Shown: in pieces, positions 10,601 through 13,600 of the stretch
Layout of the letters: every line of letters starts with the position of its first letter
Numbering within the stretch: the first letter of the stretch is position 1
From: a virus
Taxonomy: Duplodnaviria > Heunggongvirae > Uroviricota > Caudoviricetes
Reading direction: 5' to 3' (one strand)
Virus record (IMG/VR): IMGVR_UViG_2713896908_000004
DNA: 14,162 nt
Made by a program: the position numbers

Positions 10601-13600
10601 GCGGTAAGCACTTTCTTGATACTTCAGGGCGCCAGCTGTAACGATTTCCAATCGATAGGCGTCTTTCTCTGGGATAACTTCTTTCCACTGAGAGACTGCT
10701 GCATCGCTAATGCCTAGTGCTTTAGCAACAGCACGCTGGGTTCCGAAGTGGTCAATAACATCTTTTTTGTACATAGACTCGCTCCGAAATTAAAGGGCAC
10801 TTAAATTATCTGCTAAAGGAATCTTAAGTCAAGTTTATTTAAGATGTCTTAACTATGAATACACAACTGATGGGTGAGCGTATTCGCGCTCGCAGAAAAG
10901 AACTCAAGATTAGGCAGGCTGCCCTTGGCAAGATGGTTGGCGTGTCTAATGTTGCTATTTCCCAATGGGAGCGATCTGAAACTGAGCCCAATGGCGAAAA
11001 CCTATTGGCCTTAGCCAAGGCTTTGCAGTGCTCCCCTGATTACCTGTTGAAAGGAGAGGATAGTCTTTCAAACATTGCCTATCACAGCAGGCATGCTCCA
11101 AGAGGTTCGTATCCTCTAATTAGTTGGGTAAGCGCAGGATGTTGGATGGAAGCTGTAGAGCCATATCATAGGCGTGCAATAGATAACTGGTACGACACAA
11201 CGGTAGATTGTTCTGAAGACTCTTTTTGGCTCGACGTTAAAGGCGACTCAATGACTGCCCCGGCAGGACTGAGTATTCCTGAGGGGATGATTATTCTCGT
11301 CGACCCAGAAGTCGAACCACGTAATGGAAAGCTGGTAGTCGCCAAACTTGAAGGAGAAAACGAGGCGACATTCAAAAAGTTAGTTATTGATGCCGGTAGA
11401 AAATTCCTGAAACCACTCAATCCACAATACCCAATGATTGAAATCAATGGGAACTGTAAAATCATTGGCGTTGTCGTTGATGCCAAGCTAGCAAACCTTC
11501 CTTAAGGGGCTTTCGCCCCTTTTTTATTTCCCGTTAAAAATCAAAGACAAACTAAATTCACGCCCATAAAATTAAGTTTTCTTCAAAAATACAGTTGACC
11601 TACAAATTAAGAAGTCTTAAATTTAAGCCATCAGCAGGACGCTGGAAGCCAAACGGAACAGATTGGCAGGCTCTTTAACATCGACGAACTCTCAACCTAA
11701 CCGTTGAGACCAGAACTTGAGTGGTTTTGGGGATGGCGCGAATTGCAGCTGCAAGACAGCGATCGAGAAGATAAGCACCTCGACGCGTCATGCGCCAAAG
11801 CCACTTAAAGGAGACCATCATGGTAACCATAGTCTGGAAAGAATCCAAAGGTACAGCAAAAAGCCGCTACAAAGCTCGCAGAGCAGAACTTATTGCCGAG
11901 CGACGAAGTAATGAAGCACTGGCGCGAAAAATTGCGCTAAAGCTCTCTGGTTGCGTCAGAGCAGACAAAGCAGCATCACTGGGAAGCCTTTGCTACAAGA
12001 AGAAAGAAGAATTCGTTCGAAAAAATAGAAGTATTTATTACAAGGATTCAAACCCATTAGGAAACAAAATACATGCAGTCCAAAAAATAAAATTGTACAG
12101 TAAACCACCGTACGGTGCTTATTGAGTATGCTTATGGTGAAAAAGACTATTTATGTTAATCCTGACCGCGGACAAAACAGAAAAGTATCTGATAGAGGCC
12201 TTACATCTCGAGACAGGAGGAGAATAGCGAGATGGGAAAAGAGGATAGCATATGCATTAAAAAACGGTGTAACACCTGGATTTAATGCTATAGATGACGG
12301 TCCTGAATATAAGATTAATGAAGACCCAATGGACAAAGTTGACAAAGCATTAGCAACACCATTTCCTCGCGATGTTGAAAAAATTGAAGATGAAAAATAT
12401 GAGGATGTAATGCACAGAGTTGTTAACCACGCTCACCAACGAAATCCAAATAAAAAATGGTCATAGCCCACTTCGATGGTTTTTTTTATTGTCTGAACTA
12501 ACCGAATTTATTACAGCAAGCCACGCAGTGAAATGGGTGTGACTTGTGTTGGTCGCCAGAAAATGAAATTAGGCAGCAAACCACTTATTTGAGGTGATAT
12601 ATGGAAGAACAGGCAAATAAGATTCTCATAGAACTATTGCAAAAAGCCAGTAATGGAATAGACACGGCTGTCTCATTTATCCAGGCACAGATTCCTGATG
12701 TTGTTCATCAGTTGCTGCTATGGAATATGGTTGACAGTCTGATTAAAACATTAATAGCCATTTTAACAATCCCGCTGGTTTTCTGGTTTATGAAGAAACA
12801 GTACCAAAAAGTTGAAATTGGTAAGTTCGATGATGAAGGATGGTCATGGGATAAGGGGAAGACTAAATACAAACCGACTATGATTTGGGAAAGTAACGGT
12901 GAGATTAGTTTTCTAATCTTACCATTAGCTGCAGTTTTTGTTCTGTGGGTAAATTTTATTATTGCTGTAGCAATCAATATGACTTGGTTAAAAATTTGGC
13001 TGGCCCCAAAGCTTTACCTTATCGAATATGCAGCATCATTGGTTAAGTAATTTTAGGCCGCATAGTCGGCCTTTATTTTTGGCATAAACAACAGAATAAA
13101 CACTGCACTGTGTATTCATTCCAACGAGTGAATACACGGAGCAATGTCGCTCGTAACTAAACAGGAGCCGACTTGTTCTGATTATTGGAAATCTTCTTTG
13201 CCCTCTAATGTGAGGGCGATTTTTTATCTATGAGGATATGAATAGATGTCAAACATCAAAAAATACATCATTGATTACGACTGGAAAGCATCAATAGAAA
13301 TTGAAATCGACCATGACGTAATGACAGAGGAAAAACTTCACCAGATTAATAATTTCTGGTCAGACTCTGAATACCGGCTCAATAAACACGGCTCTGTATT
13401 AAATGCTGTATTAATCATGCTGGCGCAACATGCTCTGCTTATAGCAATTTCAAGCGACTTAAATGCATATGGTGTTGTGTGTGAGTTCGACTGGAATGAT
13501 GGAAATGGTCAGGAAGGATGGCCTCCAATGGATGGTAGCGAAGGAATAAGAATTACCGATATCGATACATCAGGAATATTTGATTCAGATGATATGGCTA

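Follow-up and report, generated by a model that had tools for sequence, protein, structure and literature searches.

Which kind of gene sits between the antiterminator gene N and ea10 in a lambdoid prophage represented by one Caudoviricetes sequence (IMGVR_UViG_2713896908_000004; 14,162 nucleotides (nt), hereafter the window), and what could its product do? The window covers the prophage's immunity and early region, in which the operon of the leftward early promoter (PL) is on the + strand. An open reading frame (ORF) of 149 codons with an ATG start lies at 12601-13050 (+), in the accessory-gene zone of the PL operon. An earlier reading made from this DNA (the sequence-only reading) had correctly placed it between N (11820-12125) and the DUF2528/ea10 gene (13246-13614), and had described it as an AT-rich membrane-protein gene in the position of lambda sieB, with its own ribosome-binding site and terminator, making it a candidate superinfection-exclusion or abortive-infection factor expressed in the lysogen. 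Our analysis identifies the ORF as a genuine gene under purifying selection that belongs to an uncharacterised family, PHROG 3054, and places its product among the accessory membrane proteins of phages, a broad class in which it is new and uncharacterised.

A genuine gene of a widespread family

A word-indexed search returned 442 homologues (E <= 1e-3), nearly all exactly 149 residues long and all called hypothetical, from Escherichia (E. albertii being closest, at 99%), Shigella, Salmonella, Cronobacter, Citrobacter, Klebsiella and Pantoea. A profile search against 1.84 billion cluster representatives extended the family to 2,481 clusters at 50% identity (E <= 1e-3; 1,132 of them at E <= 1e-10), and the representative genomes that carry members are mainly from Gamma- and Betaproteobacteria. 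Across 55 distinct close coding sequences, in which all 149 codons align without gaps, the ratio of non-synonymous to synonymous substitutions (dN/dS) is 0.25 overall. The gene proposed from sequence is thus real.

The ribosome-binding site claimed for the gene is there as well: GAGGTG at 12591-12596, 4 nt ahead of the ATG, within a Shine-Dalgarno motif, (A/G)AGGTGA(T/G)ATATG, that is kept in nearly all close relatives regardless of which gene lies upstream. The AT-richness is real too (G+C content 0.367, against 0.44 for the whole window) but hardly distinctive, the flanking Nun and ea10 genes standing at 0.378 and 0.393. This composition, together with an upstream sequence that is itself a gene relic, could be taken to indicate a chance ORF or a decaying pseudogene in AT-rich spacer DNA. 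Such an origin is refuted by the full-length homologues of the same length, the size of the family, the low dN/dS (0.07-0.11 at the termini) and the conserved ribosome-binding site, and we give it practically no credence.

The protein matches phrog_3054 ("unknown function") with an E-value of 2.6e-58, residues 1-149 aligning to positions 1-137 of the 137-position profile, and 49 of 49 diverse relatives match the same profile. Named members are Sf6 gene 34, Gally gp30 (LF82_104), HF4s gp37, CUS-3 ECRS218_0047 and phi92 gp220, all annotated as hypothetical or, for HF4s gp37, as "TM helix-containing". These are true homologues, 29-80% identical across their full length, and those of lambdoid and P22-like phages also follow N or ral. 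Pfam (E <= 10), NCBIfam and PADLOC (PADLOC-DB 2.0, E <= 1) gave no match for the protein, and two profile searches of Protein Data Bank (PDB) sequences reached at best E = 0.35, to helices of G-protein-coupled receptors only, so that PHROGs is the sole library that knows the family. A Pfam scan of the 49 diverse relatives yielded scattered single matches, with no Pfam family shared by more than one member. Since the function of no named homologue is known, membership in PHROG 3054 says nothing about mechanism.

Conserved terminal helices on a variable, predicted membrane hairpin

Hydropathy places two hydrophobic segments at about residues 44-64 and 101-126 (19-residue Kyte-Doolittle means peaking at 2.0 and 2.7, respectively), in agreement with the two-helix membrane protein described by the sequence-only reading. 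Combining hydropathy, family alignments, segment-wise dN/dS and an AlphaFold2 (AF2) model, the protein (all coordinates on the + strand) can be divided as follows:

Residues 1-43, 12601-12729: acidic amphipathic N-terminal helix (family alignments; AF2 helix 2-68; dN/dS 0.11)
Residues 44-64, 12730-12792: predicted transmembrane helix 1, followed by a cluster of Lys/Arg (hydropathy; dN/dS 0.15)
Residues 65-101, 12793-12903: loop, variable in sequence and in length (9-71 residues in the family; dN/dS 0.29)
Residues 102-126, 12904-12978: predicted transmembrane helix 2, almost unconstrained (hydropathy; dN/dS 0.93)
Residues 127-149, 12979-13047: aromatic amphipathic C-terminal helix, the most conserved segment (invariant P136 and K137; dN/dS 0.07)

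The first ~43 residues follow the family consensus MNEQAxxxLxxLLQKAxxGIDAAVxFSQAQIPDVIxQLLxW and the last ~22 the consensus WLKIWLAPKLYLIEYAASLVK; Q37, P136 and K137 are invariant across 147 sequences. Because the termini are conserved, in the family alignments as in dN/dS, while the middle varies, conservation singles out the acidic N-terminal helix of ~43 residues and the aromatic C-terminal helix of ~22 residues as the working parts of the protein, and the membrane hairpin would serve mainly to anchor both.

The AF2 model improved from a predicted local distance difference test score (pLDDT) of 65 with 26 sequences to one of 75 with 147 sequences. In the latter, a helix at residues 2-68 runs into the first transmembrane helix and is followed by a small beta-loop, the second transmembrane helix (106-125) and a C-terminal helix (128-148). 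Foldseek found no match to this model in the PDB, and in BFVD family members only. The protein is thus predicted to be a two-helix hairpin of the inner membrane, a placement that rests on the two strongly hydrophobic predicted helices, the charge-based orientation being ambiguous. Family members have an acidic N-terminus (on average 2.1 Lys/Arg against 5.2 Asp/Glu) and on average 2.9 Lys/Arg in the eight residues after the first transmembrane helix, which suggests an orientation with the N-terminus outside, the loop inside and the C-terminus outside. The N-terminal extensions of some members are nearly devoid of Lys/Arg, which fits an external N-terminus weakly.

Organisation of the locus

The features of the window that bear on the gene and its transcription are these:

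10855-11505, +: cI (gene order of the window)
Minus strand: cro, cII, O and P (gene order of the window)
11595-11623, +: probable PL promoter, TTGACC-17-TAAATT (promoter scan; its location relative to N agrees with the annotated pL/OL of phage 21)
11820-12125, +: N antiterminator (phrog_271, E 4.6e-31; alignment; mEp235 annotation)
12128-12466, +: Nun-like transcription termination factor (phrog_5632, E 4.8e-71; annotations of mEp235, mEpX1 and PA28)
12497-12592, +: relic, the last 30 codons and stop of a phage-21-type N (protein alignment; DNA alignment with HF4s)
12591-12596, +: Shine-Dalgarno sequence GAGGTG, 4 nt 5' of the ATG
12601-13050, +: gene for the 149-residue predicted membrane protein, PHROG 3054 (homologues, PHROG match, dN/dS 0.25)
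13055-13082, +: first intrinsic terminator past PL, the hairpin at 13055-13072 with its T-run (terminator scan, folding)
13083-13245, +: remainder of the lambda-type ral-ea10 spacer (alignment to lambda, folding)
13246-13614, +: DUF2528/ea10 gene (PL-operon gene order)
13674-13732, +: lambda cIII thermoregulator RNA element RF01804, intact, before cIII (88.5 bits)

Downstream, the hairpin AGGCCG-CATAGT-CGGCCT at 13055-13072, followed by TTATTTTT, begins 5 nt past the stop codon and folds with -12.6 kcal/mol (z = -2.2). The terminator that the sequence-only reading assigned to the gene is therefore present directly downstream, but is not private to it: the 5' arm arrived with the cassette, while the 3' arm and the T-run belong to the lambda backbone and match the hairpin downstream of ral in both lambda and phage 21. 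From this 3' arm onwards, the 180 bp at 13068-13245 are ~97% identical to the ral-ea10 intergenic region of lambda, and the gene thus stands in lambda's ral slot, with a product unrelated to Ral. The same spacer is found in lambda, phage 21 (after ral), mEp235 (after a different gene), CUS-3 and HF4s. Other occupants of the slot are mEp235_037, CUS-3 gp48 and gp49, and Gally gp31, all of unknown function.

In the remaining spacer (13083-13245), a perfect hairpin of 14 bp (about 13108-13139) stands between two terminators, the second of which is at 13198-13219 and has a T-run; the fold reaches -60.9 kcal/mol across 177 nt (z = -6.1). Non-coding DNA conserved in this way among mosaic phages suggests that the stretch holds a regulatory RNA or a site of processing. 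No Rfam family was found in 13083-13245, and the paper on the small RNA svsR, checked for a link to this region, makes no mention of ral, ea10 or N. The spacer is presumably part of the tL2 terminator cluster between bet and ral.

The slot also bears on the proposed equivalence to sieB. SieB of lambda and P22 (PF14163) is likewise a small membrane protein, and its gene is found in the early-left region, between N and ral/ea10. However, in lambda sieB runs on the other strand from N and PL, whereas the gene at 12601-13050 is co-oriented with N, and both genes coexist in one relative (L070), in the order N, sieB (-), ral and then the PHROG 3054 gene. The position is thus that of ral rather than that of sieB.

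Upstream, the arrangement carries the mark of a replacement. The first 57 residues of the window's N are identical to those of phage 21 N, and the C-terminal third diverges in the alignment. Next comes a Nun-like ORF at 12128-12466, which the sequence-only reading did not mention, and after it 12497-12589 encodes NRIYYSKPRSEMGVTCVGRQKMKLGSKPLI, of which 29 of 30 residues are identical to the C-terminus of phage 21 N. This agrees with the N relic reported directly upstream of the gene, and its TGA stop codon (12590-12592) overlaps the ribosome-binding site. A phage-21-like start, a divergent C-terminus and a stranded phage-21-like 3' end together indicate that a block with a new N C-terminus and nun replaced the middle of a phage-21-type gene; the tandem N and Nun at 11820-12592 appears to have arisen by block replacement, with nun being introduced into a phage that depends on N. 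The pair is also annotated in mEp235, mEpX1, PA28 and Kapi1. The ancestral order, N followed directly by the gene, is borne out by relatives with an intact N of the phage 21 or HF4s type (among them L007, L011 and L013), in which the ORF begins 12 nt downstream and the TGA of N lies inside its Shine-Dalgarno sequence.

Beside this, the end of nun itself varies. In one relative (L019, at ~3900-4000), a clean intrinsic terminator, AACCCGTCCAAGACGGGTTTTTTATTG, comes after the Nun-like gene; the window retains the T-run at 12467-12495, GGTTTTTTTTATTG, and has lost the hairpin. Termination after nun thus seems, from these sequences, to differ between otherwise similar phages.

Probable transcription from PL

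The only promoter-like sites upstream of the gene on its strand are at the position of PL (consensus scan). Between 12301 and 12600, a relaxed scan returned no sigma-70-like site against 4.0 expected, and the consensus scan none either, although weak or non-canonical promoters escape such scans. The ral-type upstream spacers of Gally and CUS-3, inspected by eye, hold poor candidates only (e.g., a TACAAT too near the Shine-Dalgarno sequence), and we claim no promoter there. No stable hairpin follows Nun (fold of 12455-12500, z = +0.8). From PL to 13055, one other terminator-like site occurs on the + strand, at 12929-12948; it has three G-C pairs and lies inside the ORF, and we treat it as spurious and the hairpin at 13055 as the first convincing terminator past PL.

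Since the gene shares its strand with N, no promoter-like site lies upstream, no hairpin comes after Nun and the first terminator is at 13055, the gene would be the last cistron of the immediate-early PL transcript, which would run through N, Nun, the N relic and the gene to the terminator at 13055-13082. Polymerase modified by N would then read through this terminator into ea10 and cIII. We regard this account of anatomy and expression as very probably right, co-transcription being what we infer from the anatomy.

Expression in a lysogen was assessed from published RNA sequencing of Gally, a prophage of E. coli LF82, whose gp30 is 80% identical to the protein of the window (PMC9928086, S1 Table). 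Values are log2(fpkm+5), fpkm being fragments per kilobase per million mapped reads, with two replicates per condition; LB is lysogeny broth:

gp30: LB overnight 4.5/3.9, B1 5.1/5.3, B6 7.1/7.0, MB1 7.0/7.0, MB6 7.0/6.9
N: LB overnight 2.3/3.4, B1 3.4/3.7, B6 3.9/4.1, MB1 6.7/6.6, MB6 4.5/5.1
gp29, the next gene past the terminator: LB overnight 3.2/4.0, B1 3.8/4.2, B6 4.8/4.9, MB1 4.5/5.4, MB6 4.4/4.7

RNA of the gene is thus modestly and conditionally present in Gally lysogen cultures. It is at prophage background in LB overnight and ~5-8 fold over its neighbours in B6, MB1 and MB6 (lysogen cultures in Dulbecco's modified Eagle's medium (DMEM) or macrophages), where it stays 10-30 fold under the repressor, whose RNA is at 9-12 in all conditions. 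Across the site equivalent to 13055-13082, RNA falls ~4-5 fold, from which it follows that the terminator works in vivo. In the same data, gp31 and gp30 (L127, 2602-3361; LF82_105 and LF82_104) both rise 4-8 fold in DMEM or macrophages while N and the downstream recombination genes are low. Gally gp13, gp14, mnt, gp17 and gp52 likewise rise in these conditions.

These data bear on the account that follows from the sequence-only reading, in which the gene is a self-contained moron that has a promoter and a terminator to itself and is expressed in the lysogen as a SieB-equivalent abortive or exclusion factor. A location in the accessory zone between N and ea10, a predicted membrane protein, presence or absence among related phages, and RNA of the Gally homologue above both neighbours in three of five lysogen conditions all speak for it. 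The window itself speaks otherwise: the gene is co-oriented with PL (sieB of lambda is not), no promoter-like site precedes it, the terminator derives from the backbone, and in relatives it starts 12 nt after N with the N stop inside its Shine-Dalgarno sequence. In LB, RNA of the Gally homologue stays at background, and the Gally study, whose cut-off was based on LB only, names no moron for this prophage (PMC9928086). Together with the lack of any similarity to SieB and the occurrence of the family in virulent phages (both below), this makes a self-contained SieB-like moron quite unlikely.

A compact mobile cassette

Among 80 close viral contigs, 64 have PL-operon markers on the same strand within 1.5 kb. 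The distance from the preceding gene to its start is, in close relatives, 12 nt where N precedes and 62-63 nt where ral does. Only ~25 nt upstream of the ATG travel with the gene, the DNA farther up being that of whatever gene precedes. These comparisons show a compact mobile cassette made up of the ORF, the ~25 nt in front of it that include the ribosome-binding site, and half a hairpin. Two related hairpins bracket the gene where ral precedes it (CUS-3, Gally-type phages and many IMG/VR contigs), which suggests that the cassette may move by recombination at the hairpin.

More distant members occupy quite different places. No neighbour gene was common to all contexts, either by neighbour clustering or by a PHROG tally, in an initial 35 and then in 59 non-redundant, more distant loci. 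Among the 59, the gene follows N in four, stands antisense to both neighbours in seven, and in some lies in the nin region beside NinB- or NinG-like genes (by eye). Antisense sites were found in Rahnella and Pseudomonas prophages, between the genes for the large terminase subunit and the portal (L091 and L096 being of this terminase/portal kind), and in Vibrio phage 120E34-1, between tail-completion and head-closure genes. Where the gene forms such an antisense island in a late operon, it must be expressed autonomously; own transcription of this kind is also what a self-contained moron would require. Carriers that are virulent by type include phi92 (gp220), the N4-like phage TR2 (gp25) and many Vibrio phages, and expression in a lysogen therefore cannot be the general mode of the family.

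Morons are described as genes present or absent between related phages and found at several genome positions, HK97 gp15 and bor being examples (PMC3594210). The gene shares both properties, being present or absent between homologous phages and inserted at several sites, which supports movement like that of a moron. The promoter that defines a moron was not found here, and the terminator is shared with the backbone.

At 8 of the 59 loci, an Rz-like spanin gene immediately precedes the gene; in several of these the two overlap by 4-13 nt, and terminase genes come next. This context would suit an accessory protein of lysis, i.e., an antiholin, a holin-like regulator or a spanin-linked factor that tunes the time or mode of lysis, as would the architecture of the protein: class II holins are small two-helix hairpins with charged ends. 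In the window, however, the lysis cassette, whose S21-type holin gene is at 50-310, lies at a distance of ~12 kb, and most enterobacterial members are in the early-left operon. Where lysis cassettes do adjoin the gene, they already have a holin, and neither the protein nor the 49 relatives match a Pfam holin family. The space after Rz is also a known landing site for accessory genes, such as bor in lambda. A role in lysis is hence improbable.

Candidate functions

Any function has to reconcile early positions in lambdoid, N4-like and phi92-like phages with late positions in some phages and autonomous expression in some prophages; it also has to suit a predicted membrane protein of use to temperate and virulent phages alike, with terminal helices kept over very different hosts and an unconstrained hairpin. 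We tentatively favour a membrane-level block to superinfection, which fits most of these points, by analogy with known exclusion proteins: the protein would be active at the cytoplasmic membrane early after infection or induction and, in small amounts, in the lysogen, and may protect the cell from competing phages by blocking genome entry, as T4 Imm or P22 SieA do. For this reading as a whole (anatomy, expression and function), we estimate a probability of about 0.35.

Such a block is suggested by the presence of a predicted membrane protein in both temperate and virulent phages, which parallels the distribution of SieA and Imm/Sp. The autonomous expression of the antisense islands and the Gally homologue's RNA, 5-8 fold over its neighbours in lysogen cultures and falling past the terminator, also count in its favour. 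P22 SieA is a 164-residue protein of the inner membrane that blocks DNA injection, is expressed from the prophage and shows specificity for P22-like phages (PMC10883804). The 149-residue protein resembles it in size and in predicted membrane location, and differs in that sieA belongs to the immI region, where a separate promoter is annotated for it. T4 Imm and Sp are small envelope proteins of an infecting virulent phage that stop DNA entry by later phages (PMC11436027), and set a precedent for an exclusion gene in a virulent phage that is expressed in lytic growth. The protein had no Pfam-A match at E <= 10, in a Pfam copy whose inclusion of an Imm model was unchecked, and no direct alignment to Imm was made. 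We know of no description of conserved termini around a variable hairpin for Imm.

The homology search that the sequence-only reading had called for gave no relationship to SieB or other exclusion proteins. In the scan that assigned lambda SieB to PF14163 (1e-29) and RexB to PF15968 (8.5e-92), the protein had no Pfam match at E <= 10; BLASTP against SieB gave E >= 3, and hhalign probabilities were 0.2% for SieB, 0.2% for SieA and 0.1% for RexB. SieB reportedly aborts the lytic growth of a superinfecting phage. Nothing in our analysis points to abortive action of this type for the PHROG 3054 protein, which we consider less likely than a block to genome entry.

The conservation of the termini also invites another explanation, in which the terminal helices bind a conserved host component of the inner membrane (a protease, a transporter or a membrane-bound defence effector) that is thereby neutralised or exploited during lytic growth, i.e., host takeover or counter-defence. 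The terminal helices are near-invariant over very different hosts while the remainder varies, the gene lies in the early region of lambdoid, N4-like and phi92-like phages, and its PL-operon neighbours ral, cIII, kil and gam all act on host functions. Set against this are the absence of a PADLOC match, of a conserved neighbour gene and of an identified partner, and the antisense islands in late operons of temperate phages, which are left unexplained. On balance, we consider host takeover unlikely.

Several observations weigh against a superinfection block as set out above. The conserved parts are near-identical across phages of Enterobacterales, Vibrio, Pseudomonas and Burkholderiales, and because the termini are so conserved, a conserved partner in the host or the phage itself fits better than the variable injection proteins of a rival. 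Neither the library and structure searches nor the direct comparisons revealed any similarity in sequence or fold to known exclusion proteins, and the literature on PHROG 3054, Sf6 gp34 and the mEp and ECOR temperate phage sets yielded no function for any member. The loci directly after spanin genes, some with stop/start overlaps, point to a link with lysis. The AF2 model is of moderate confidence (pLDDT 75), and the charge signals conflict, the basic C-terminal helix running counter to an orientation with both ends outside. Finally, Gally gp30 RNA is up to ~8 fold above that of N, an excess not expected of simple co-transcription from PL; it would call for stabilisation of a leaky PL transcript by the 3' hairpin or for a weak, unrecognised internal promoter.

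Other accessory genes in the window

Two further genes of the window lie outside the PL operon. An LpxR-type outer-membrane protein gene at 4003-4962 (+; PF09982, E 8e-40), a member of the lipid A deacylase family with a signal peptide, runs opposite to the metallophosphatase (5174-5839) and Q (2841-3614) genes that flank it, and has the appearance of a classic antisense moron of the nin/Q region. A 249-residue ORF with several hydrophobic helices at 1920-2669 (-) matches nothing in Pfam or PADLOC. It lies just downstream of the Q antiterminator gene, with three tRNA genes (1548-1776) downstream of it, and occupies the site where Shiga toxin (Stx) phages carry toxin genes.

Implications

PHROG 3054 comprises thousands of sequence clusters and has no description in domain databases. 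Its layout of near-invariant terminal helices on a near-neutral hairpin is unusual and suggests a specific mechanism. Early-left accessory genes such as ral, sieB, cIII, kil and gam have each revealed a distinct manipulation of the host or of rivals. It is possible, though doubtful, that PHROG 3054 represents an unrecognised and widespread class of phage membrane effectors, a pair of terminal helices on a freely evolving transmembrane hairpin that serves temperate and virulent phages of Gamma- and Betaproteobacteria as an exclusion device or as an inhibitor of a conserved inner-membrane host function, by a mechanism unrelated to those of Imm, SieA, SieB and Rex. Were the gene dispensable, it would be one more ordinary accessory ORF. 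If its product does block genome entry or neutralise a membrane-bound defence, it would be a compact and broadly distributed addition to the systems by which phages compete, and would help to annotate a common "hypothetical protein" of E. coli, Shigella, Salmonella and Vibrio prophages.

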